A stretch of DNA of 64,000 bases from an uncultured Clostridia bacterium (GTDB lineage Bacteria > Bacillota > Clostridia > Christensenellales > UBA1242). This document shows positions 5,413 through 57,018 of the stretch, in pieces. Where the stretch lies: contig CANBBP010000005.1 in the NCBI GenBank assembly GCA_947366895.1, positions 1 through 64,000 on the forward strand. The letters run 5' to 3'. Made by a program: the position numbers and the translations under genes. The first letter of the stretch is position 1. Each line of letters opens with the position of its first letter. Below the pieces are notes generated by a model. The model was not told the origin of the DNA and ran no database searches. It saw only the letters and a list, made by a program, of their open reading frames with translations.

Positions 5413-5598
5413 TCTATTGTTTTAATAAATATCTTATTTATCAAAGACAGCAAGTGAAGGTAAACTTCGTAATTCTTTTTTAAAAAGTTCTTGCCGAGGT
5501 AAGTAATGAGGAAATTTTTTCTTTTAATTTAAGATAGTTTTACCTTGTACTTACTTTGAGTATAAGGTTTTTTTATTTTAACTTAAAAGGAGAAGTAG
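5413..5598 (+). promoter_or_regulatory. rplJ 5' leader, likely the autoregulatory L10 leader element
   Basis: ~185-nt untranslated leader between the consensus promoter and the rplJ ATG. Firmicute rplJ leaders are known L10(L12)4-binding regulatory RNAs, but the structure was not verified here. Confidence 0.45.
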
Positions 5599-7046: not shown

Positions 7047-7244
7047 TTTTAATTTTTCCTTTTTTTGTTTTAATTATTATCTATTAAAATAAATTTAATC
7101 AAAATAATTTTAATAAGAAATTAAAAAATTGGTTTTTATTAAATTAAAAGATTTTTAAAATAAATTTTTAATTAATAAACCCGTTTGCATATTATTTCTT
7201 TTTGTGTTATCATAAAATTACTTAAAAAATAGGAGCATAAGAAA

Positions 7245-8678: not shown

Positions 8679-9668
8679 TTAACTTTCTTCTATATTTTCT
8701 ATCTTATTTTCATTATTAAATTTTATATTATAAACCTTTGCGTATTTTACTGGCTTTGAATAATAAATCAATGCTATTTCTTCTGGGTTGTATTCAGGTG
8801 ATAAGGTTTGATAAGGCTTTTCAAAATTTCCAAAAAACTTGTTTAGATGGTTGTTTGATAATTTACTTGATAGGGCAGGGGAAAGATAGTTTCTAGCTAG
8901 TTTAAAATTTTTATTTTTTAATGCTTCAAAAAAAGCAAAAGGAACAAACTCTTTAATTTTGGTTATTGTTGGTTTTTGGTTGTTGTATGCTAATTCTTTT
9001 GTTTTATTAAATGCATTTTCAAATGAGTATGTTGTAATTTCTCCGTGATTTGCGTAGTCATGTAAATTTTTATAAGTAGTTATTGTGTTTTCATTTCCTT
9101 CTAATAAATCAACTTCTTGCATTTCTTGTAAAAAGTATTTATTGTTTTCGTATAAAATATGACAAGTAACAAATTTTGAATTTTGAGTGCGAAAATATAT
9201 TAAAATATTACCATCTTTAATTTTTGCTTCCATATCTGTTACTTTACAATTATTTCTAAAATCTAAATAGTTTGTAGAATTTTCTATTCGACAATTAAGA
9301 TAATTATTACTAAACCAACTTATGGTATGAGGGGTGTTTTGAGAACGGATTACTTTTGTTTTAAGACCAAACCCAACTGGTGAATTTGCAAAGATAAAAG
9401 GATTAACTTCCAATAAAAAATTATTATTTGGAAAACGAGTTAATGTTAGGTTACTCATATTAGTTTGAAGTGAGTTTTCATTGAAAGGTTCTAAAATGCA
9501 CGAAAATGGCAAAGAGTTTAACTCTTCTGAAAATGATGGGTAAAAAGATAAGGCGGTTTTATCTTTTAAAATAAATGAATAGGTCTTATTTTTTATAAGA
9601 CTTTTTTGATTATCATAGTAGTTTAATACGCAATCAAAACTAGGCTTTATGTGTAAGTAGAAATCCAT
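8679..9668 (-). CDS. Hypothetical protein, N/Y/F-rich, 329 aa
   Basis: Long ORF with no recognisable motif. Confidence 0.5.
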   Translation of the reverse strand: MDFYLHIKPSFDCVLNYYDNQKSLIKNKTYSFILKDKTALSFYPSFSEELNSLPFSCILEPFNENSLQTNMSNLTLTRFPNNNFLLEVNPFIFANSPVGFGLKTKVIRSQNTPHTISWFSNNYLNCRIENSTNYLDFRNNCKVTDMEAKIKDGNILIYFRTQNSKFVTCHILYENNKYFLQEMQEVDLLEGNENTITTYKNLHDYANHGEITTYSFENAFNKTKELAYNNQKPTITKIKEFVPFAFFEALKNKNFKLARNYLSPALSSKLSNNHLNKFFGNFEKPYQTLSPEYNPEEIALIYYSKPVKYAKVYNIKFNNENKIENIEES

Positions 9669-10559: not shown

Positions 10560-10651
10560 TTTATTAAATAATTAAATATATAATTGCTAGTAAGGATTTA
10601 AAAAAAATAAGGTTATAGTCACTAACATTTGAAACTAGCGGAATAATTAAA

Positions 10652-10681
10652 GAGAACTCTATAGTTTTAGAGTTCTTTTTC
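10652..10681. terminator. Hairpin with T-run just inside the left end of the island
   Basis: Stem gaactcta / tagagttc, loop tagttt, then ttttt. Confidence 0.45.
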
Positions 10682-10713
10682 TTGTGGCTTTATGCCGCGA
10701 AAGGTTCTTTACT

Positions 10714-10837
10714 CAGGGCTTAAGAATGGAACATAATAGACAAAAGGCAAAAAGAAAAAAGCGAAAGTATCTTCGCTTTAATAGCATAATGCTTGTTTCT
10801 TTGTCTTATTTGCAGAGATTATCATTCTAAGCCCTGT
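10714..10837. repeat. ~124-nt long imperfect palindrome (nested inverted repeats) downstream of the recombinase gene
   Basis: Outer arms cagggcttaagaatg / cattctaagccctg (15 bp, 1 indel). Inner arms aatagacaaa / tttgtcttatt. Central hairpin agcgaa-agtatc-ttcgct. Confidence 0.6.
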
Positions 10838-10871
10838 GTCAAGAACATCGTGGAATAAATTAGCCACAAGT

Positions 10872-12374
10872 CTAAATAACCACATAAATATCATAAGTAT
10901 TGGTTTTAGTTTTAATAATGCCACCTTTGAAGTGTCTTTCGGTTGTGTAAGTTTCTGTAAATACTTTTTGAGTTATCGGCTCATTACTTGCCATTTGGTT
11001 TATTGCGTAATTTATACCTATTTCAATTTTGTTCTCATAAACTTTCACAAACTTTATGAATAATTCAAACGCCATATTTGGACATTGTTTCATAGTGTAT
11101 TTGAAGAAGTTTTGTATATCTTCTTTTGTTAGTTCATATCTCTCTTTAGATTGCTCTATAATAACTTTCTCTTGCAAGTCTTTCTTTGCGTTTTCAAGTT
11201 CTTCTAATCTTGCTTTTGTTGTTTCGGTAAATATGCCTTTTTCAATAGCTGACATAATATTTGCAATGGATGTATTTACTCGTTGTAAATCGGTTTTTAA
11301 TGCGTTTAATGGTGTATTGCTACCAATCCTTTTCTTATGCACTTCAAATATCTTTTCAGTCAATATTTCAAGGTTTTTAGGTGTATTGAATTGTTCTATT
11401 AAGAATTTGTCTACAACACCCTCAATAAAGTCCTTATGCAATCTTTTATTATGACAGTTATCTTTCTTTGTTCCTATGCAATTATAGTATCTCAAATGTT
11501 CGCCATTAGAAGATATTGCAGATACTGGATACATTTTCTTATTGCAATAACCACAATATATTTTGTCTTTTAGTTTAAATATTTCATGATTATCTTTTCT
11601 GCAACCATATCTATTTTTATCCATTCTTTCTTTAACCTTTGTGAATAGTTCTTTTGTTATTATTTGTGGGTAGATATTGTCATATCGTTTGCCATTTATC
11701 TCATATTCGCCAGTGTATAGTTTTCTTTGTAGAAAATGTCTTATTGTTTGTGGTATAAACTTTTGACCTTTATTTGTAATGCTTTCATTCTCTAAATCTT
11801 TAGATATTTGCAATATTGTTTTGCCACTTGCATAATCTTTGTAAATTCTATTTAATATTTCACTTTCTTCTTGGTTTACTTTTAACATTTTGTTTTCTTT
11901 AATGTAGCCATAAGGAACACTGCCAATACAATGTCCTTTCATTCGTGATTCGTGTAGTCCACGACTTACTTTTTGTGCTAATTCTTCACTAAAGTATTGG
12001 TTCATTCCTTCTAGCAAACTTTCAAGTAAAACTCCTTCTGGTGTTTCTGGTATATTTTCCATTGCAGATAAAAGTTTAATTCCATTATCTTTTAAGTGTT
12101 TTCTATGAATTGCTGACTCGTATTTGTTTCTTGCAAATCTGTCTAGTTTGTAAACTAATACATAGTCCCATTTCTTGTTATTGCTATCTTTTAGCATTCT
12201 TTGAAAAGATTCTCTTTCATCTGTTGTTCCACTGATTGCTCGGTCAATGTATGAATCAACGATTATTATATCGTTTCTTTTCGCATAGTCTTGGCAGACA
12301 TGAACTTGTCCCTCTATGCTTTGTTCTGTTTGGTTTGTGCTAGAGTATCTAGCGTAGATTACTGCTGTTTTCAT
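10872..12374 (-). CDS. Large serine recombinase (resolvase catalytic domain + recombinase domain + zinc-ribbon region), 500 aa
   Basis: N-terminal MKTAVIYARYSSTNQ... carrying the catalytic Ser/Arg resolvase signature. Its length and the Cys-rich segment (CGYCNKKM ... YYNC ... C.N.K) fit large serine recombinases. Confidence 0.85.
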   Translation of the reverse strand: MKTAVIYARYSSTNQTEQSIEGQVHVCQDYAKRNDIIIVDSYIDRAISGTTDERESFQRMLKDSNNKKWDYVLVYKLDRFARNKYESAIHRKHLKDNGIKLLSAMENIPETPEGVLLESLLEGMNQYFSEELAQKVSRGLHESRMKGHCIGSVPYGYIKENKMLKVNQEESEILNRIYKDYASGKTILQISKDLENESITNKGQKFIPQTIRHFLQRKLYTGEYEINGKRYDNIYPQIITKELFTKVKERMDKNRYGCRKDNHEIFKLKDKIYCGYCNKKMYPVSAISSNGEHLRYYNCIGTKKDNCHNKRLHKDFIEGVVDKFLIEQFNTPKNLEILTEKIFEVHKKRIGSNTPLNALKTDLQRVNTSIANIMSAIEKGIFTETTKARLEELENAKKDLQEKVIIEQSKERYELTKEDIQNFFKYTMKQCPNMAFELFIKFVKVYENKIEIGINYAINQMASNEPITQKVFTETYTTERHFKGGIIKTKTNTYDIYVVI

Positions 12375-12554
12375 TTTTTCTAAACTCCTTTATATTTTTT
12401 ATTTGTCTTTCGACGGAGCGAAACTAAACGAAAGCGGATTCTTGTTTTAAACTTTTAAATATATATATTTTTTAGTCAAGGTTTGCGAAAAGCAATACAC
12501 TTTAACCTTGACTAAAAAGAGTTTTCGTTTACGCTCCACAAGGCGAAAGATAAA

Positions 12555-13442
12555 TTAGTTGGTTGTTCTCAACTGAGATATTGTTTCTTTACTTACTTTT
12601 CCCACCAAGACACCTTCATCCCAACAATTAAAGTCATCAAATAAAAGTAGTTTTCTATCTTCAATTCCAATAGTGCAAACAATATCACTATCCATAATGT
12701 CTGATATGAAATAGGTCGGTAGTCCTTTTGAGTAAACAATTTTTTCTTCGGTCTTTGCTAAATATTTCATTATATAGGCGATAGATTGTGCCAAAGAATT
12801 TGGGGCTATTGGCTCAAAGTCGTTCCTTCCAAATCTATCTAAAAAATATTGGTTTTGATATGTCGTTTGCATTTGATGTGTTTTTGTGCTGAAATCTCGT
12901 TTTTCTATAAACTCTAAATTGTTGTTTGGTATATACACAAGTGTGTGAAAGTGTAGCCTTTTATTTATTGGACTTCGTTCCCAAACACCTGCATATTTCC
13001 AACTTTTGCGATTAGATAAATGTTTTAGACAATTAGACAACTTCGTTTTAAATGACTCTTCGTTGTGCTTTTTGTCATCATAAGTAAATGTGCAAAAATA
13101 TGACCATTCTTGTAAGTAAACTTTTCTTACAAATCTTTTTCTTCTTTCAATTAAATTTCTTAACTTTCTGTCTAAATTAACTTTTACAAACTCTCTTAAT
13201 CTTTCTTCGTTCTTTATATATGGCTTTAAACTTTCAATAATTTCGATGTTTCTTTCTCGTGGCTTTTTATCTAAATTTTCTCTATATGTCTTTTCAAAAA
13301 GTTTGTTTAAATTTGTTGTCGATGTTTCTAAATTTTCTTTCTTAATAGTGTTAGTTTTCCGTTTTTTGTGTGGTTGTAATTCTTTGGGTATTGCAATGTA
13401 ATGGCTACCATCGAAATACACTTTTGTTTCTCCAAATGGCAT
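12555..13442 (-). CDS. Rolling-circle replication initiator of the HUH superfamily with a phiX174-type double-tyrosine motif
   Basis: Motif 1 FTFTYDD, motif 2 HFHTLVY (HUH), and motif 3 AYIMKYLAK, which is Y-x-x-K-Y-x-x-K as in phiX gpA (YVAKYVNK). Confidence 0.7.
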   Translation of the reverse strand: MPFGETKVYFDGSHYIAIPKELQPHKKRKTNTIKKENLETSTTNLNKLFEKTYRENLDKKPRERNIEIIESLKPYIKNEERLREFVKVNLDRKLRNLIERRKRFVRKVYLQEWSYFCTFTYDDKKHNEESFKTKLSNCLKHLSNRKSWKYAGVWERSPINKRLHFHTLVYIPNNNLEFIEKRDFSTKTHQMQTTYQNQYFLDRFGRNDFEPIAPNSLAQSIAYIMKYLAKTEEKIVYSKGLPTYFISDIMDSDIVCTIGIEDRKLLLFDDFNCWDEGVLVGKVSKETISQLRTTN

Positions 13443-13443
13443 A

Positions 13444-13599
13444 TTACACCTGCCTTTTGGATGGTTTCTCTTTTATTTTGCGGTGTTGCATAATGTGATC
13501 TAGTAGTGCAAGATAAAACGATTCATCTAAGCCACCAACATCAATTAAATTTTGAGAGAAATCCTTATTGTTTGATTTGTTTTTAAAAATGTTTTGCAT
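13444..13599 (-). CDS. Small 51-aa ORF immediately upstream of, and overlapping, the rep start
   Basis: RBS aaaggagg 9 nt before the ATG. Its stop overlaps the rep start region (translational coupling). No known motif. Confidence 0.3.
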   Translation of the reverse strand: MQNIFKNKSNNKDFSQNLIDVGGLDESFYLALLDHIMQHRKIKEKPSKRQV

Positions 13600-14107
13600 T
13601 TTTCATTGCCTCCTTTTAGTTTTTTGGCAATTAAAAAAGGCATAGAAAGAAAATACTTCTTCTACGCCTTTGAAATGCAACCACTGTTTCTTAAACGAAA
13701 ATCTCGGCTTGCCATTTTTGCGTGTCTTTTTCAATTACTTTTGTAAATGTATCACAAACAATTTCAAAATAAAATGATATTACTTGCCCCTTAGTAGTCA
13801 TCTTATTGATTTTGATTGCTAACACTTGACACTATGTTAGCAAGTTGTTCGTTAAAATACAACGAACTAACTTAAACAAAACTTCTAATAAATCCGTAGT
13901 AAACCCTAACTAAATTTAAACTGACTTAAAGTAAAACCCAAATTTTTTAAGTGTTTGTGAAATATTTACGAGTAGAATATCTCACAAAAATCTCGGAATT
14001 ACAAGATGGTTTACTGGTAGTTTACAAGTAATAAACAGGTATTTTGCGGACAAAATGCGAACTTTTGCAATGCATTTACACTTAATAGCCACAAAAACAT
14101 TAAAAAG

Positions 14108-14136
14108 TTGACGGTCTAACTGAAACTTTTTAATAT
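14108..14136 (+). promoter_or_regulatory. Candidate sigma-A promoter (TTGACG, 17-bp spacer, TAATAT) facing the hairpin cluster and R-M operon, bracketed by a 14-bp direct repeat
   Basis: -35 at 14108-14113 and -10 at 14131-14136. Direct repeats aatagccac(a/g)aaaa at 14084-14097 and 14146-14159. Confidence 0.4.
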
Positions 14137-14236
14137 CTTCTATATAATAGCCACGAAAAAGCCATTTTGAGCGGGTGTTTTTACAAAAAAATTTATAAAC
14201 TTAAAAATTTATGTTAAAAAGCAAAACAAAAGAGAA

Positions 14237-14398
14237 AGTGGGCGAAGAAAAAAGTGGAGGTGCGATAGCCTGCGGCACTCCACTTTTTGCCCACTTTCGT
14301 TTTGCGAAAGGTTTGTTTATATTTAGTTGTTTTAGTTTAGGCGTGTGCTTGTCTGCTGGAGCGAAGCGACAGCACTTGTATCAAGACAAGCACACGCC
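14237..14398. other. Cluster of three GC-rich stem-loops inside an AT-rich island; candidate rolling-circle origin (dso or sso)
   Basis: Nested hairpin with outer stem aagtgggc/gcccactt and inner stem aaaaagtggag/ctccacttttt (14249-14259 / 14278-14288). Hairpin ctttcg-ttttg-cgaaag (14294-14310). 15-bp perfect inverted repeat ggcgtgtgcttgtct / agacaagcacacgcc (14340-14354 / 14384-14398). Confidence 0.45.
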
Positions 14399-14514
14399 TG
14401 AGTGCCATTTTATTTAAAATTTTATAAAATAAGTCAACGATTGCTTGCAAAAATCATATCATTTATGTTATATTAAAAGTAAAGAAAGTAAAGATTTTTT
14501 AAGGAGCAAAAAAT

Positions 14515-14724
14515 ATGATAAAGCAAGCGAAGTTATCAAATAAATGCCAAATAACAGTTCCGAAAGAGGTTAGGAAATTGTTGGAGATTGATAAGGGAGA
14601 TGATGTCGTTTTTTATATTGAAGATAATGAGGTAAAACTAACCAGTATTAAAAACATTAATCTAAAACTAAAGAACCCAAAAAAGAAAACAACAATGAAA
14701 AAAGGAGAAAATAACAATGGATAA
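14515..14724 (+). CDS. AbrB/MazE/SpoVT-family small DNA-binding protein, 69 aa; first gene of the R-M operon
   Basis: Swapped-hairpin signature QITVPKEVRKLLEIDKGDDVVFYIEDNEVKL. RBS aaggagc. Overlaps the hsdM start by 8 nt. Confidence 0.7.
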   Translation: MIKQAKLSNKCQITVPKEVRKLLEIDKGDDVVFYIEDNEVKLTSIKNINLKLKNPKKKTTMKKGENNNG

Positions 14725-16444
14725 ACAAAAGATTGACAACAAGGCAAGTTTGATATGGAGCATCGCAGATAAACTTCAAGGAGATTATAAGCCTCATGAA
14801 TATGGAGATGTTATTCTTCCATTTACTGTGCTTAAAAGGTTTGATAGCGTCCTTGCCGACACTAAAGATAAGGTTATTAAAGTAGCATCTGAATATCCAG
14901 TTATTACTCCACCTGTTGACAAACTTCTTAAAAGTGTAGCAAAACAACAAATATACAATATAAGCAAATATAATTTTAAAAATTTGCTTGACGACCCTGA
15001 TAATATAAAAATCAACTTTAAAAAATATATTGCTGGCTTTTCTGAAGAAGTAAAAGATATCTTAAGTAAAGAGCATGGGTTTGAGTTTGATAGACAAATT
15101 GAAAAACTAGACAATGCGGGTTTGTTATATTTGATAATTGCCGAATTTAATACCGAAAAGGCAGATTTACACCCTAACAAAGTTAGCGATATTGAAATGG
15201 GGTATATTTTTGAGGAAGTAATTAGAAAATTTAGTGAAACATATCAGGCTGATGCTGGAGAATTCTACACCCCAAGAGAAATTATTGATTTAATGGTTAA
15301 TTTACTTTTAAATAATGAAGAATTAAGTGAAAACAATAAGGTAATACAAATATATGACGGAGCGTGTGGCACTGGTGGGATGTTGTCTATCGCCTACGAA
15401 CGAATCAAGGAACTAAATAGTACAAATGCCGTTTTTACAAATGGGCAAGAAATTAACCCTCAAACTTATGCTATTTGTAAAAGTGATATGCTACTTAAAG
15501 GTGGTAAAAATTCAACAATTAAATTTGGTAGTACCCTTTCGAACGATCAATTTTCTGAAGAACAATTTGATTATATTATTATGAATCCACCTTTTGGTAG
15601 AGAATGGAAAAAAGACAAGGAAGAAGTTGAAAAGGAATATAAGCGTGGTTTTGCTGGTAGATTTGGTGCAGGATTGCCTGCAGTTAGTGATAGTCAAATG
15701 TTATTTTTGCAAAATGCTATTTCAAAAATGAAACCAAGTGGAAGTAGAGTTGCAATAATACATAATGGTTCTGCTTTATTTGCTGGTGATGCAGAAAGTG
15801 GACCAAGTGAAATTAGAAGATATATAATTGAAAATGACTTGCTTGAAGCCATTATTCAATTACCAAACAACATCTTTTATAATACTGGAATAGCTACATA
15901 TATTTGGCTATTGTCAAATAAAAAATCAAAAGAAAGAGTTGGTAAAATTCAACTTATAAATGCAAATGAAATGTTTGTAAAGCGACGCAAGGTTTTAGGC
16001 GAAAAGCGAAATGACATTTCAAAGACGCAAATTGAGGATATAACCAAACTTTATGATGATTTTAAAGAAGCCGATAACAGCAAAATATTAGACAACGAAG
16101 ATTTTAAGTATTTTAAAGTTGTAGTTGAAACGCCGATTAAAGATGAAAAAAGCAACATTATATTAGATAAAAAAGGCAAAAAACAACCTGATATAAATTT
16201 AAGAGATTTTGAGATTATACCAGCGAAAGAAAATATTGAAGCATTTATGCAAAAAAATGTTTATCCTTTCAACCCTGATGCTTATATAGATAAAGACAAA
16301 ACTAAAGTTGGTTATGAAATTCCTTTTACAAGGTTATTTTATAAATTTATTCCACCTACTCCATCAAAGGCTATCTTTGCTGAAATTAAAGAGCTTGAAA
16401 AACAAGAAACCACTTTAATGAAGGAGTTATTTAGCAATGATTAA
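14717..16444 (+). CDS. hsdM: Type I restriction-modification system, methyltransferase subunit
   Basis: N6-adenine methyltransferase motif IV NPPFG (IIMNPPFGREW) and a SAM-binding region DGACGTGGML; 575 aa. Confidence 0.9.
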   Translation: MDKQKIDNKASLIWSIADKLQGDYKPHEYGDVILPFTVLKRFDSVLADTKDKVIKVASEYPVITPPVDKLLKSVAKQQIYNISKYNFKNLLDDPDNIKINFKKYIAGFSEEVKDILSKEHGFEFDRQIEKLDNAGLLYLIIAEFNTEKADLHPNKVSDIEMGYIFEEVIRKFSETYQADAGEFYTPREIIDLMVNLLLNNEELSENNKVIQIYDGACGTGGMLSIAYERIKELNSTNAVFTNGQEINPQTYAICKSDMLLKGGKNSTIKFGSTLSNDQFSEEQFDYIIMNPPFGREWKKDKEEVEKEYKRGFAGRFGAGLPAVSDSQMLFLQNAISKMKPSGSRVAIIHNGSALFAGDAESGPSEIRRYIIENDLLEAIIQLPNNIFYNTGIATYIWLLSNKKSKERVGKIQLINANEMFVKRRKVLGEKRNDISKTQIEDITKLYDDFKEADNSKILDNEDFKYFKVVVETPIKDEKSNIILDKKGKKQPDINLRDFEIIPAKENIEAFMQKNVYPFNPDAYIDKDKTKVGYEIPFTRLFYKFIPPTPSKAIFAEIKELEKQETTLMKELFSND

Positions 16445-17687
16445 GATGAAAGAAAGTGGTGTTGAATGGATTGGACAAATTCCTGAAGACTGGAAATTAA
16501 AAAGATTGAAAATAGTTTTACAGGAAAGAAATGAAAATAATAATCCTGTTAAAACAGATTATATATTGTCATTGACAAATGATAAAGGAGTTATTCCATA
16601 CTCTGAAAAAGGCGATATTGGTAATAAATCTAAAGATGATATTACTGGGTATAAGTTAGCTTATCCAAATGATATTGTGCTAAACAGCATGAATGTTGTT
16701 ATTGGTTCGGTCGGTATTTCCAACTATTTTGGAGCTGTAAGTCCAGTTTATTATATGTTAAGACCAAGAAATAAAAATGACGATGTAAGGTATTATAATT
16801 ATATTTTTCAGACAAAAGAATTTCAAAATAAGTTAAAGGGTTATGGGAATGGAATTCTAGAAATAAGAATGAGAATTCAGATGTTAAAATTAAACACTGT
16901 AGAGTTACCTGTTCCATCAAGTGAAGAGCAAGTAAAAATCGCTGATTTTCTTGATAAAAAATGTTCGCAAATTAATGCACTTATAAAAATTCAAGAAAAA
17001 GAAATTGAAAAGATTAAACAATATAAACAAGCCGTTATAAGCGAAGTTGTAACAAAAGGCTTAGACCGTAGTGTGAAAATGAAAGATAGTGGCGTTGAAT
17101 GGATAGGCGAAGTCCCTGTAGATTGGGAAGTAAAAAAATTAAAATTTTGTTATAAAAACAGAAATACTAAGTATACATTAGGAGAATTCCCATATATTGC
17201 ATTGGAAAATATAGAATCTTTTAGTGGGAAATATGTTTACACTGAGACAAATTCAAATTATTTACTTGAAGGTTCAATTATTGCGACTAAGGGAGATGTG
17301 ATATTTGGTAAGCTTAGACCGTATTTAACAAAAGCATTTCTAATTGAATCTGATTCTTGTGTATCTACAGAATTTGCAGTATTTTATTCAAATGAGAATA
17401 ATTCAGAATTTTTAAAATATTTATTTTTAAGCTATAGATTTATAGACATAATAAACTCTTCTACATATGGGACAAAGATGCCAAGAGCGAATATTGATTT
17501 TATAAATAATCTAGAGATAGCTTTACCAAATTTAAAAACCCAGCAAGAAATATCGGAGTATCTTGAAAAAAAATCAAATGAAATAGATAACTTAATACAA
17601 ATAAAGAAATTTAAAATTCAAAAACTTCAAGATTATCAAAAATCTTTAATATACGAATATGTAACAGGTAAAAAGAGGTGTATTTAA
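16437..17687 (+). CDS. hsdS: Type I restriction-modification system, specificity subunit
   Basis: Two target-recognition halves, each preceded by the conserved repeat MK(E/D)SGVEWIG(Q/E).P.DW. Overlaps hsdM by 8 nt and hsdR by 10 nt. Confidence 0.85.
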   Translation: MIKMKESGVEWIGQIPEDWKLKRLKIVLQERNENNNPVKTDYILSLTNDKGVIPYSEKGDIGNKSKDDITGYKLAYPNDIVLNSMNVVIGSVGISNYFGAVSPVYYMLRPRNKNDDVRYYNYIFQTKEFQNKLKGYGNGILEIRMRIQMLKLNTVELPVPSSEEQVKIADFLDKKCSQINALIKIQEKEIEKIKQYKQAVISEVVTKGLDRSVKMKDSGVEWIGEVPVDWEVKKLKFCYKNRNTKYTLGEFPYIALENIESFSGKYVYTETNSNYLLEGSIIATKGDVIFGKLRPYLTKAFLIESDSCVSTEFAVFYSNENNSEFLKYLFLSYRFIDIINSSTYGTKMPRANIDFINNLEIALPNLKTQQEISEYLEKKSNEIDNLIQIKKFKIQKLQDYQKSLIYEYVTGKKRCI

Positions 17688-20647
17688 TGGAAACAAAAGA
17701 AAAGAATTATGAAGCGTTCATTGAAAGATATTTAACCACTACAGGTGGCTATATAAAAGATAATGGTTCTGGTTATGACAATAAAATTGGAATAATTACA
17801 CCTGATTTATTTTCTTTTATTAAAACCACTCAACCTAAAGAATGGAAAAGGGTTCAGGATAGTCAAGGCTCTCAAGCAGAGATATATTTTATTGATAGAC
17901 TGAAGAAAAATATTGATGAATATGGATTTTTACATGTTTTACGCAACGGAATTAAACTGAATGGAGTTACAATAAAACTTATTTTCTTCAAGCCAGAGAC
18001 TGAAATCAATCCAGATAGTATCAAATTATATAATCAAAACATTTGCAAGCTTGTTCGTCAATTACACTATTCATATCTAAATAATAATAGTCTTGATACC
18101 GTGCTTTTTGTAAATGGTTTTCCAATTGCAACAATTGAATTGAAAAACGAGTTTACTGGACAAACTTGTCAAGATGCTATACGACAATACAAATACGATA
18201 GGGACCCAAATGAAGTTATATTTCAATTTAATAAAAGGTCTTTAGTGCATTTCGCAGTTGATTTGCAAGAAGTATATATGACAACAAAATTGAATAGTAC
18301 ATCAACAAAATTTTTGCCATTTAACCAAGGCTCAAATGGTGCAGGTAAAGTTGGTGGTAAGGGTAATCCAATAAATGAAAATGGTTTTGCAACTGCTTAT
18401 TTGTGGGAGAATGTTTTAAATAAAGATAGTCTTTTTGATATATTAAATAAATATATACAATTGGAAGTTAAGAAAAACAAAAAAACTGGCGAAATTAAAA
18501 AGACTTTGATTTTCCCTAGATATCATCAGTTGGATGTTGTAAGAAAGTTAATAGCAGATGCAAAAGCAAATGGTGCTGGAAAAAATTATTTAATTCAACA
18601 TAGTGCAGGAAGTGGAAAAAGTAATAGTATTGCATGGCTTGCTTATCGTCTTGCAACTTTACATGACAGTAATGATAATACAATTTTTGATAGCGTAGTG
18701 GTTATTACAGACAGAAGAGTTCTTGACCAACAACTTCAAGATAATATCTATCAGTTTGAGCATACTCTAGGCTTTATAGAAAAAATTGACAAGAACAAAA
18801 CCAGCCAAGATTTATTGAAAGCAATAAATGCGGGCAAAAAAATAATAATTACAACATTACAAAAATTTCCTATTATTTATAAAGACATTGAATCTCAACA
18901 TAAGCATTTTGCAGTTATAATAGATGAGGCTCATTCATCTCAGACTGGTAATAGTGCAAAAAAACTTAAAGCTGGTTTAGGAGATTTGGAAGAAGCAATA
19001 AAAATTGAGAATGAACTGGAACAAAAAACCTCTGAAGATGAAGATAAATTGCTTTTTGAACTTGCAAGTCAGGGAAAACAAAAAAATCTATCATTCTTTG
19101 CTTTTACTGCAACTCCAAAAGCCAAAACTCTTCAAATATTTGGAACAAAAACTGAAGAAGGTAAATTTGTTCCCTTCCATATATATTCAATGCAACAGGC
19201 AATTGAAGAAGGCTTTATTTTAGATGTTTTGCAAAATTATATGACTTATAGCACATTTTATAAGTTGGTTAAAAAGACAAATGAAGACCCTGAATTTGAT
19301 GCTAGTAAAGGAATTAAAGAACTTGTAAGGTTTGAGACTTTGCATCCTACCAACATATCTCAAAAAACAGCAATTATTATAGAGCAATTTTTAAACACAA
19401 CCGCCAACAAAATAAACGGAAAAGCAAAAGCTATGGTTGTTACTCCATCGAGATTGCATGCGGTAAAATATGTAAATGCTTTTAAAGAATATATTAAAAA
19501 GATATCTATGGAAGACAAAATTAAGGTGTTAGTTGCCTTTTCTGGCGAAGTTTTTGACCCTGACACAAAAGAGACTTATACGGAGCCAGGGATAAATAAG
19601 ATAAGCGAAAGCCAATTGCCTGAAGCTTTTGAAGAAGAATACAATGTATTAATAGTTGCTGAAAAATATCAAACAGGATTTGACCAACCATTGCTCCATA
19701 CGATGTTTGTTGATAAAAAACTTTCTGGAATAAAAGCTGTTCAAACTCTTTCACGACTTAATAGAATCTGTGAAGGTAAAACTGATACTTTCGTTTTGGA
19801 CTTTGTAAATAAAGCTGAAGATATACAAAATTCGTTCCAAGACTTTTACCAAGGCACTGTGTTGACAGAAGGTTTTGATGTTAATAATGTTTATGATATT
19901 TATGGCAGATTGGAGGCATATAAACTGGCTGATATAAATGACATAAATGGATTCGCTGAATTATATTATTCAAATTCTGAAGATATGGGTAAATTAAGCT
20001 CTTATTTGTATAGGGCAAAAGAAAAATATATTGTTCTTGAAAAGAATGATAAACACGAATTTAAATCTATTATGCAAGCATTTTTACGAAATTATAATTT
20101 CGTTACTCAAGTAACTCGTATGAATGATAAAGAATTGCAATCGGCATACATTTATTATAAATATCTAAATCAGTTTCTTCCAAAAGACAACGCCAAATCA
20201 GTAGATGTTAAAGATTTAGTCGAGTTAGAGTTCTATAAGCTTGAAAAGAAGTTTGAAGGAAGCATAACTCTTACAAAAGAACAAGCCGAAATTGAGCCTC
20301 CTACTGGAAATATCGGCAAAAAAGGTGAAACGGCAAAGAGTAAATTGAGCGAAATTATCAATAAAATTAATCAAAAGTATCAGACAAAGTTCACGAATAT
20401 GGATAAAGTCTTTGAGCAAATCGAAAACGATTATTTAAATGATGATAGAATGAAAGCATTTGCTAAAAACAACGAAGAAAAAGCATTTAAAAAAGTTTAT
20501 GATATCGAGTTTGAAAACAAAGCGATACAAAGATATGAGCAAAATAGCGAATTATTTAAGATTTTATTTACTGACGAAGAATTTATGAATGATATTAAAT
20601 CAGCTTTATTTAAAGCAATTTATAGTAAATTAAAACAATCTCAATAA
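17678..20647 (+). CDS. hsdR: Type I restriction enzyme, restriction (helicase-nuclease) subunit
   Basis: 989 aa. Helicase motif I AGSGKSNS and motif II DEAH (AVIIDEAHSSQTG). Size and operon context fit a type I R subunit. Confidence 0.85.
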   Translation: MYLMETKEKNYEAFIERYLTTTGGYIKDNGSGYDNKIGIITPDLFSFIKTTQPKEWKRVQDSQGSQAEIYFIDRLKKNIDEYGFLHVLRNGIKLNGVTIKLIFFKPETEINPDSIKLYNQNICKLVRQLHYSYLNNNSLDTVLFVNGFPIATIELKNEFTGQTCQDAIRQYKYDRDPNEVIFQFNKRSLVHFAVDLQEVYMTTKLNSTSTKFLPFNQGSNGAGKVGGKGNPINENGFATAYLWENVLNKDSLFDILNKYIQLEVKKNKKTGEIKKTLIFPRYHQLDVVRKLIADAKANGAGKNYLIQHSAGSGKSNSIAWLAYRLATLHDSNDNTIFDSVVVITDRRVLDQQLQDNIYQFEHTLGFIEKIDKNKTSQDLLKAINAGKKIIITTLQKFPIIYKDIESQHKHFAVIIDEAHSSQTGNSAKKLKAGLGDLEEAIKIENELEQKTSEDEDKLLFELASQGKQKNLSFFAFTATPKAKTLQIFGTKTEEGKFVPFHIYSMQQAIEEGFILDVLQNYMTYSTFYKLVKKTNEDPEFDASKGIKELVRFETLHPTNISQKTAIIIEQFLNTTANKINGKAKAMVVTPSRLHAVKYVNAFKEYIKKISMEDKIKVLVAFSGEVFDPDTKETYTEPGINKISESQLPEAFEEEYNVLIVAEKYQTGFDQPLLHTMFVDKKLSGIKAVQTLSRLNRICEGKTDTFVLDFVNKAEDIQNSFQDFYQGTVLTEGFDVNNVYDIYGRLEAYKLADINDINGFAELYYSNSEDMGKLSSYLYRAKEKYIVLEKNDKHEFKSIMQAFLRNYNFVTQVTRMNDKELQSAYIYYKYLNQFLPKDNAKSVDVKDLVELEFYKLEKKFEGSITLTKEQAEIEPPTGNIGKKGETAKSKLSEIINKINQKYQTKFTNMDKVFEQIENDYLNDDRMKAFAKNNEEKAFKKVYDIEFENKAIQRYEQNSELFKILFTDEEFMNDIKSALFKAIYSKLKQSQ

Positions 20648-20660
20648 ATCTTTTAATAAA

Positions 20661-20692
20661 AAAGACATACTAAATAAATAGTATGTCTTTTT
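20661..20692 (+). terminator. Rho-independent terminator after hsdR
   Basis: Stem gacatact / agtatgtc, loop aaataaat, then ttttt. Confidence 0.75.
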
Positions 20693-20805
20693 CGCTAGTT
20701 TCAAAGTTTATAACCTATATAACTTTATTTTTTTTGTTAAGTTTTATTTAATAAGTAAAGTTAAAAATAATTGAAAAATGCAAGAAGTTATGATATAGTT
20801 TTTAT

Positions 20806-56875: not shown

Positions 56876-57018
56876 AAATTATACCTATAAAGAGTGTGTT
56901 AGGGACAAGCCCGATTGTAGCACACAGCAACCTGTTTATATTAACAAGGTGCTAATACTTGATTGATGGGATATTAATTTAATTATGAGAAAAATCCTAT
57001 CTATAAATCTAGATAGGG
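56876..57018 (+). ncRNA. SAM-I (S-box) riboswitch with intrinsic terminator upstream of metK
   Basis: Conserved S-box blocks tta.agggac.agcccgat..gcaacc and aaggtgctaa, followed by terminator cctatcta/tagatagg plus a T-run. Confidence 0.7.

Follow-up and report, generated by a model that had tools for sequence, protein, structure and literature searches.

Rolling-circle origins, ssoA elements and integrated elements carrying Rep proteins of the rolling-circle replication (RCR) type are already known kinds of systems. Actinomycete elements of the pSAM2 type, for example, replicate by the rolling-circle mode after excision. Rolling-circle replication has also been described for ICEBs1 and Tn916 (PMC5704250), and in the pT181 and pMV158 plasmid families the nick site lies in the loop of an extruded inverted repeat that is accompanied by a separate Rep-binding locus (PMC1851628); some origins of the pC194 family have been reported to be without hairpins (PMC5037232). 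Here we compare with these systems a locus in a stretch of 64,000 nucleotides from an uncultured Clostridia bacterium (contig CANBBP010000005.1, positions 1 to 64,000 of the forward strand; hereafter the window), for which a first-pass annotation had proposed a cluster of three hairpins as a rolling-circle origin. We consider it likely that the segment 14236–14411 is the double-strand (leading-strand) origin (dso) of a rolling-circle replicon, integrated as a 10.1-kb element by a serine recombinase, because its third hairpin is linked to genes for related Reps and contains a nick-like motif, because its structure bears signs specific to DNA, and because the element has a candidate lagging-strand origin on the same strand and its own integrase.

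A conserved hairpin module beside a Rep gene

The features on which this reading turns are the following:

12555–13442, − strand: rep, encoding an HUH rolling-circle Rep of 295 amino acids (PF23343)
14236–14297, + strand: HP1, a nested hairpin with an A-rich 5′ bulge, a conserved accessory hairpin
14294–14310, + strand: HP2, a 6-bp hairpin of CTTTCG (14294–14299) and CGAAAG (14305–14310)
14311–14338, + strand: GT-rich spacer with GTTTAG-like repeats, directly 5′ of HP3
14339–14399, + strand: HP3, the candidate origin hairpin, a perfect 16-bp inverted repeat

The three stem-loops are present where the first-pass annotation had seen them, and their placement between rep and the MazE-like/hsdMSR operon (14515–20647, + strand) was correct. 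Folding of 14225–14415 gave strong structure on both strands, at −77.9 kcal/mol with z −6.2 for the + strand and −71.0 kcal/mol with z −8.5 for the − strand, and none of 200 dinucleotide shuffles folded as well. Rfam gave no match to the region at gathering thresholds, the best one at E up to 10 reaching 26 bits against a threshold of 100. Searches with blastn using the intergenic region and the second conserved hairpin of the element (ROD, see below) returned no match among plasmids and, among phages, HP3 in one unverified record only; in IMG/VR, HP3 was found in 1 of 2.9 million contigs.

The neighbouring Rep matches Pfam family PF23343 (REP_ORF2-G2P) with 45.5 bits, above the gathering cut-off of 27.8 (E 9.4e-12), and the same family is found in all 120 Rep homologues among the matches listed. 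Its RLHFH motif (162–166) and the motif Y223-x-x-K226-Y227 are invariant in 34 and 56 aligned homologues, and the protein has the HUH nuclease fold; a two-tyrosine YxxKY motif is characteristic of phiX174 gpA. The subfamily comprises 3,533 protein clusters, none of them named, and we found no description of its origin in the literature. A scan of one genome per species yielded 71 loci encoding relatives of this Rep (designated here by L numbers), mostly from gut Clostridia, Christensenellaceae and metagenome-assembled genomes of ‘Candidatus Onthoplasma’. HP3 lies beside the Rep homologue in 54 of these loci, and most of the 17 loci without it are contigs that end too close to rep.

HP3, a single-copy structure in the window (E 1.4e-20), has arms at 14339–14354 and 14384–14399 with 29 nt between them; the perfect inverted repeat and its spacing had been described accurately before, only the arm length, given as 15 bp, being one pair short. 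Within it, an inner stem GCTG/CAGC is capped by the mini-hairpin GCGAAGC (14361–14367), and an unpaired bulge, ACTTGTATCA (14374–14383), separates the inner stem from the 3′ arm. Copies of HP3 share ~80–93% nucleotide identity, whereas the Reps share ~45–50% amino-acid identity, and in an alignment of 43 distinct copies 95.3% of the cells are paired, with 12 of 21 pairs compensated. None of 500 shuffles did as well and a sliding partner collapsed the pairing, so that the structure of HP3 is evidently under selection. The core of the outer stem is almost invariant, and the three outermost pairs and the inner stem covary. As expected of a dso, covariation thus describes an inverted repeat able to extrude, with a conserved unpaired bulge. 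The inner apex reads GC-GNA-GC or GC-GNNA-GC in at least 33 of 42 copies; GNA closed by GC/GC is the rule of an extraordinarily stable DNA mini-hairpin, which has been found at the priming sites of the single-stranded DNA (ssDNA) phages G4, St-1 and alpha3 and in ssiA (PMC13037366).

The first-pass annotation had advised a search for a nick motif shared with related origins, and a candidate was found in HP3 as a near-invariant, unpaired bulge that contains CTTG. The bulge, 9–10 nt long with the near-invariant consensus NCTYGT(W)TCA, reads ACTTGTATCA in 19 copies, and ACTTGTTCA and TCTCGTATCA are variants. CTTG (or CTCG) is conserved, but the next letters are T(A)T(C)A where the pC194/phiX174 consensus CTTG/ATA has ATA. 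CTTG is also present in the phiX174 origin. It is common to the nick site of pC194 as quoted in PMC5037232, and by analogy the nick would probably fall between G14378 and T14379 on the + strand. The predicted nick strand outfolds its complement at the HP1 region in 41 of 49 loci and at HP3 in 36 of 49, a bias that is only suggestive because the sequences are related. After HP3 follows a short conserved tail, GTGCCATTTT (14402–14411, + strand), of the form GTGCCA(A/T)(A/T)T in the window and in L001, L002, L003, L037, L058, L059, L075 and L078; past HP3, conservation ends within 10–15 nt in every lineage, and beyond that point even close relatives differ. On its 5′ side, similar GT-rich, GTTTAG-type sequence was seen in many loci. 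Among individual copies, L047 carries an insertion of ~45 nt inside the inner hairpin (7134–7240) that leaves the outer stem and the nick motif intact, and in L017 and L034 HP3 follows rep at 1096 and 813 nt instead of the usual ~100–150 nt, and an additional gene seems to have come in between.

HP1 is the nested hairpin originally described, with an outer pairing of AAAGTGGGC (14235–14243) and GCCCACTTT (14289–14297), the 11-bp inner pairing of AAAAAGTGGAG (14249–14259) and CTCCACTTTTT (14278–14288), and the apical loop GATAGCCTGCG (14264–14274). A long hairpin with an A-rich 5′ bulge is found 3–72 nt 5′ of HP3 and on the same strand in almost every locus. Its stem sequences vary, 20 of 21 pairs being compensated in the class A alignment of 15 sequences, and its apical loops fall into two near-invariant classes, A (RAAAGCCTGCG, including GATAGCCTGCG of the window) and B (CAAGCGGYTYAGCG). 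The loop classes change only twice on the Rep tree; physical linkage explains this agreement equally well, and recognition by Rep is therefore not proven. HP1 could be the place where Rep is loaded or gains specificity, or else a second signal for priming. HP2, which overlaps the 3′ foot of HP1 and was flagged only as terminator-like, had also been read correctly as a hairpin, but it is specific to the window, with no counterpart in the aligned relatives, and not part of the conserved module.

Other elements of the original proposal fared less well. The direct repeat announced as a pair of 14-nt iterons exists (TAATAGCCACRAAAA, 15 nt, at 14083 and 14145), but an equal or longer repeat arises in 13 of 100 dinucleotide shuffles and the repeat is not conserved among relatives, which leaves no ground for an iteron role. 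Promoter-like sites number 9 against 5.3 ± 2.3 in shuffles and are therefore not clearly enriched, which leaves the candidate promoter unsupported. The palindrome around TTGACA is real and lies ~10 nt to the right of where it had been placed: a 9-bp inverted repeat, TTGCTAACA (13816–13824) and TGTTAGCAA (13835–13843), brackets the hexamer. Read along the minus strand, it comes shortly before a promoter-like site of the rep operon (13801–13774), and it is a possible operator. A skew change near 14 kb was found, but it coincides with a switch in gene orientation and is uninformative on replication. The suspicion that the open reading frame (ORF) at 14211–14417 is not real proved sound: it has no Pfam match, the HP3 lengths of relatives spread evenly over all residues modulo 3 (19, 18 and 13), and conservation tracks the stems rather than the reading frame, and a coding region was thus rejected as an artefact. 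An open frame crosses the region in 37 of 50 loci, a test that is uninformative because GC-rich hairpins lack stop codons. An inverton was also considered for the window and rejected. Taken together, relatives keep HP1 and HP3 and lack HP2, and comparison strongly supports the core idea of a rolling-circle origin through the linkage of HP3 (54/71), covariation, the motif and HP1, but not the parts assigned to HP2, iterons and promoter.

The related loci differ in architecture. In the majority (47 loci) the module lies 90–150 nt after rep and the nick strand is the sense strand of rep, whereas in the subgroup of the window it lies 438–1501 nt upstream of rep and the nick strand is antisense. 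No homologue of the window recombinase was detected beside rep in the 47 majority loci, where rep is preceded by large proteins without an assigned family. One of these, present in 38 loci (e.g., L007, 3820–5979), is a protein of ~700 amino acids that has transmembrane helices at its N-terminus and contains a Walker A motif (GSMGKKKT). It has >2,700 homologue clusters; it matched nothing in Pfam, PHROGs, NCBIfam or PDB sequences and has no named homologue, and its AlphaFold 2 (AF2) model, with a pLDDT of 46, was too poor for a structure search. In 12 Christensenella-type loci (e.g., L018, 4610–5434) rep is preceded by a 274-amino-acid Walker-A protein (APPRTGKT), whose Zot-like match is weak (phrog_197, E 3e-7), adjoined by a 726-amino-acid coiled-coil/Flg_new protein, and the pair may represent filamentous-phage-like machinery.

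A candidate lagging-strand origin within an integrated element

Two findings go beyond the first-pass annotation, namely a candidate lagging-strand origin 3.4 kb away from the hairpin cluster and the integration of the whole unit as a 10.1-kb element, which holds these further features:

10600–10640, − strand: left terminal inverted repeat, from inside to outside CGCTAGTTTCAAA-N17-TTATTTTTTTT, a candidate attachment (att) half-site of the serine recombinase
10681–10870, + strand: ROD, an imperfect hairpin ~190 nt long, immediately past the stop codon of the recombinase gene
10872–12374, − strand: large serine recombinase of 500 amino acids (Pfam Resolvase, Recombinase, Zn_ribbon_recom)
13444–13599, − strand: small ORF of 51 amino acids upstream of rep, possibly a regulator
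14515–14724, + strand: cargo gene for a MazE/AbrB-like protein (Pfam)
14717–16444, + strand: cargo gene hsdM (Pfam)
16437–17687, + strand: cargo gene hsdS (Pfam)
17678–20647, + strand: cargo gene hsdR (Pfam)
20692–20737, + strand: right terminal inverted repeat, CGCTAGTTTCAAA-N18-TTTATTTTTTTT

As DNA, ROD folds with −44.6 kcal/mol on the + strand (z −9.5) and is conserved in the seven loci sharing the recombinase; of its 42 pairs 17 are compensated, and a G·T pair on the + strand is invariant. Its 5′ foot, TTTATGCCGCGAAAGG (10689–10704), matches RS_B of ssoA origins (TTTATGCCGAGAAAA in pSSTET1 and TTATGCCGAGAAAATTT in pSELNU1), and TTATGCCGNGAAA has a single copy in the window and is conserved in position in L001, L002, L003, L041 and L067. 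A lagging-strand origin must share its strand with the nick motif, and both the RS_B reading and the G·T pairs on the + strand put ROD on the nick-motif strand. We regard it as a candidate ssoA-like lagging-strand (single-strand) origin.

The exact 12-mer GCTAGTTTCAAA has only two copies in the window, at 10628–10639 (− strand) and 20694–20705 (+ strand), and outward of each follow ~17 nt and then a T-run. In L001, the closest relative, the homologous core is flanked by this inverted pair as well (2693–2704 and 8892–8903), with different cargo and flanks, so that the ends are defined in two independent elements; the element of the window therefore spans ~10600–20737. Judged from these ends, it is a 10.1-kb element inserted upstream of rpoB, with its own integrase and defined borders, in the order left repeat, terminator hairpin, ROD, recombinase, rep, small ORF, 640-nt spacer, HP1–HP3, restriction-modification cargo and right repeat. 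The predicted empty site, upstream of rpoB, would read roughly AAAAAAAATAAGGTTATA/TATAACTTTATTTTTTTT. The target halves flanking the terminal repeats are near-palindromic, rich in A/T-runs and resemble a bidirectional terminator. Perfect palindromes GCTAGTTTCAAA...TTTGAAACTAGC were also seen in two unrelated metagenome contigs without rep or recombinase genes (L082, 1651–1690; L083, 4227–4265); these are terminator-like and could relate to preferred targets of the recombinase. No synteny was found between the flanks of the L001 group and the window, an exact-protein look-up of the left-flank gene for an empty site returned the same arrangement only, and a first scan of metagenome contigs for joined ends (attP) found nothing, its gap range probably having been too wide.

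The recombinase, whose NCBIfam matches to CcrB and XisF are weak and under cut-off, also follows rep in L001, L002, L003, L037, L041, L058 and L067. No family match was found for the 51-amino-acid ORF in Pfam and NCBIfam scans; its DNA is 75% identical in L001, and a 50-amino-acid ORF occupies the same position in L075–L080. The same two scans of the element ORFs matched only the recombinase, Rep, the MazE-like protein and HsdMSR. The Type I restriction-modification cargo of the window is not shared with L001. Elsewhere, Type I hsdM lies beside HP3 in L024 (7327–8520) and L027 (7551–9077), and RE_AlwI, a D12 methylase and DUF6119 do so in L075 (2104–7928). From such gene contents the origin-proximal site looks like a hotspot for defence cargo.

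The surrounding window has a GC content of ~22–36% per kb, as in a low-GC chromosome, and holds rplJ/rplL, rpoB/rpoC and genes for ribosomal proteins. Positions 1–481 are the 3′ end of a 16S rRNA gene, and the other 63.5 kb contain no tRNA or 23S rRNA gene, so that the rRNA genes appear unlinked here; a tRNA/tmRNA scan of the window found none. Rfam matches above gathering thresholds are an L10 leader upstream of rplJ (5423–5582) and a SAM riboswitch (56882–56991).

A possible replication cycle and its alternatives

From the anatomy, conservation, covariation, motifs, strand bias and element ends obtained here we infer nicking and its exact position, excision, replication, the direction of synthesis, transfer and the roles of HP1 and ROD. 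The recombinase would join both terminal inverted repeats and release a circle. In supercoiled DNA, HP3 would extrude, its invariant 16–18-bp stem positioning the two-tyrosine HUH Rep, the GCGNAGC mini-hairpin would lock the inner arm, and the 9–10-nt bulge ACTTGTATCA would stay single-stranded. Rep would cut within this bulge, probably at CTTG/TAT on the + strand, and remain bound to the 5′ end via Y223 or Y227, and the free 3′-OH could then prime leading-strand synthesis rightwards across the restriction-modification cargo. Once HP3 is regenerated, the second tyrosine would reseal the displaced + strand, which would be made duplex from the RS_B-bearing hairpin at 10681–10870 on the same strand. 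HP1 would act as a co-conserved accessory hairpin, and for HP2 and the 14-nt direct repeats we propose no conserved role. The nicked single strand could also leave via the conjugation system of a helper.

Several observations weigh against a rolling-circle origin of this kind. Terminal overlap, as expected of free circular forms, was found in 0 of 19 small contigs, and the only hits of a second attP scan were two unrelated palindromes of terminator-like form, which lacked rep, recombinase, HP3 and RS_B. Searches with tblastn found no relative of the Rep among 72,556 plasmid records and only one among phage records, the same unverified one that matches HP3, and autonomous replication has therefore never been seen for the family. 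The motif is CTTG-TAT and not CTTG-ATA, so that the nick position is an analogy, and the covariation and strand-bias statistics rest on related, non-independent sequences. The orientation of HP3 relative to rep is inverted between the subgroup of the window and the majority. As for ROD, it occurs only in the recombinase subgroup and is absent from most Rep loci, it lies 3.4 kb from the origin instead of directly upstream, and its CS-6 element (TAGCGT/A) is not conserved, reading TAGCAT in the window (10781–10786) and TAGGGCGT in L037 and being absent from the other five loci; ROD is therefore called ssoA-like and not a strict member of ssoA.

A possible alternative, which overlaps with the origin reading and does not exclude it, is that the module serves chiefly as an origin of transfer, the element being an integrative mobilizable element in which the RCR-type Rep would work as a non-canonical relaxase, cutting HP3 and leading the single strand out by way of a co-resident helper's conjugation pore. 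Firmicutes integrative mobilizable elements with a serine or tyrosine integrase and an RCR-initiator-like protein have been described, including the PHA00330 group (PMC5704250, PMC5357655), restriction-modification cargo is typical of such elements (PMC12084326), and the element of the window, consisting of integrase, Rep and cargo without transfer machinery, would fit among them; one relative moreover lies near PcfJ/PcfK-like genes. However, Pfam identified no TcpA/FtsK-like coupling protein and no pore genes in the element, no helper is visible within the 64-kb window, the Rep has no BLAST-level similarity in the plasmid collection, and in the literature on these elements we found no experimental relaxase activity of any PHA00330-class protein. 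The hairpin with RS_B is no less compatible with replication than with transfer.

It is tempting to speculate further, although we consider this rather unlikely, that HP1–HP3 are the shared cis-acting ‘passport’ of a very large unnamed group of mobile elements in gut Firmicutes, in which the element of the window would be a stripped-down hitchhiker that relies on larger elements for export. Such a group may comprise the >3,500 Rep clusters together with other core genes that match no family, such as that of the ~700-amino-acid Walker-A protein. The window element may have kept only Rep, origin, integrase and defence cargo and be exported by packaging or by an unrecognised transfer apparatus, with HP1 as export signal and the GCGNAGC-capped arm of HP3 doubling as a priming site.

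We think it unlikely that the module corresponds to the intergenic region of an element resembling filamentous phages, with HP3 as viral-strand origin and HP1 as packaging or complementary-strand signal, the whole being a defective prophage or a satellite in need of the morphogenesis genes of a helper. PF23343 is named after ORF2/G2P replication proteins, which we take to be the Reps of filamentous phages (Plectrovirus, Inovirus). Origins of ssDNA phages typically have clustered hairpins and GCGNNAGC mini-hairpins, and the weakly Zot-like and the coiled-coil/Flg_new proteins that precede rep in 12 relatives point the same way. But the Zot-like match is weak and the commoner ~700-amino-acid neighbour matches nothing, Pfam and NCBIfam scans identified no Zot-like, coat or adsorption gene in the window element, and HP3 is confined in viral collections to the single IMG/VR contig and the one unverified phage record.

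That the hairpins act as RNA, either as a small RNA or as a 3′ untranslated region or terminator, transcribed from the promoter-like site at 14108–14148 or, in the majority loci, as the end part of the rep mRNA, appears highly improbable. RNA and ssDNA are indistinguishable by covariation alone, promoter-like hexamers do lie upstream on the + strand, HP2 is terminator-like, and in the majority loci the module follows the rep stop codon by 90–150 nt in sense orientation. Yet the lack of enrichment of promoter-like sites and of any Rfam match even at E up to 10 speaks against RNA, as does the outer stem of HP3, almost invariant in sequence beyond what mere pairing asks for, and GNA triloops closed by GC/GC follow the rule of a DNA mini-hairpin. 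The module furthermore stays linked to rep despite inverted orientation and side, and is therefore not tied to one transcript.

That HP3 is instead a recombination or transposition site, i.e., an att site of the serine recombinase or the end of an HUH transposon (IS91, Helitron, IS200/IS605), is very unlikely: the break in conservation 10–15 nt past HP3 does resemble an element end or a cargo junction, but recombinase-type terminal repeats lie at 10600–10640 and 20692–20737 with the cargo past HP3 inside them, the right one 6.3 kb beyond it, ~47 loci have HP3 without a detected homologue of the window recombinase, the covariation of the inner hairpin and the mini-hairpin misfit a duplex att site, and no second end hairpin was found for a transposon, whose transposase families the Rep does not match, PF23343 being its only family.

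Comparison with known systems

A rolling-circle origin at this locus would provide a concrete proposal, with nick motif, strand and accessory hairpins, for a Rep family that is abundant in gut bacteria yet has no name. HP3, with its 60 nt, is a sharper marker of the elements than the protein and could help to detect them and trace their extent in metagenomes, whose assemblies they seem to break up. Small elements of a serine recombinase and a rolling-circle Rep carry restriction-modification cargo at the origin, with three types among the relatives, and Rep, HP1–HP3, ROD and the recombinase would form a minimal replicon and integration module that might yield genetic tools for low-GC, Mollicutes-like gut lineages that are difficult to manipulate.

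Among described systems, the dso of the pC194 family and the phiX174 origin share with the locus an HUH initiator, matched here by a Rep with YxxKY, and CTTG in the nick motif (for pC194, PMC5037232). They differ in that the motif of the window, CTTG-TAT(CA), is presented in an asymmetric bulge of a 16–18-bp hairpin with a mini-hairpin-capped inner arm, and in that its Rep, a member of PF23343, lacks any BLAST-level relative among the 72,556 plasmids. The locus follows the logic of the hairpin origins of pT181 and pMV158, in which a nick site is exposed as single strand by an inverted repeat, and the role of their bind locus could here fall to HP1 and the GT-rich spacer; however, sequences and Rep families are unrelated, the motif of the window lies in a lateral bulge and not in a terminal loop, and its accessory is a structured hairpin with an invariant loop and not a set of direct repeats. 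A nick motif in the lateral bulge of a nested, mini-hairpin-capped hairpin, beside a structured partner, makes for an unusual origin architecture. ROD resembles ssoA of pMV158, pE194, pSSTET1 and pSELNU1 in being a long imperfect hairpin with an RS_B-like 5′ foot on the nick-motif strand, and differs from it in the lack of a conserved CS-6, in its greater length (~190 nt), in its distance of 3.4 kb from the leading-strand origin and in its position beside a recombinase gene.

As a whole, the element is similar in make-up to the integrative mobilizable elements of Firmicutes (Rel_PHA00330 and others), i.e., small, with a single integrase and a single RCR-type Rep, carrying defence cargo and lacking a conjugation pore, but unlike them it is without a TcpA coupling protein. 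The filamentous-phage intergenic origin is similar in the Pfam family name ORF2/G2P and in its hairpin cluster, whereas the window element is without morphogenesis or coat genes and nearly absent from viral collections. With pSAM2-type elements, ICEBs1 and Tn916 (MobT) it would share chromosomal integration and rolling-circle replication of a presumed excised form, while those elements use other Rep or relaxase families, reside in other host phyla or lineages and bring their own transfer functions.

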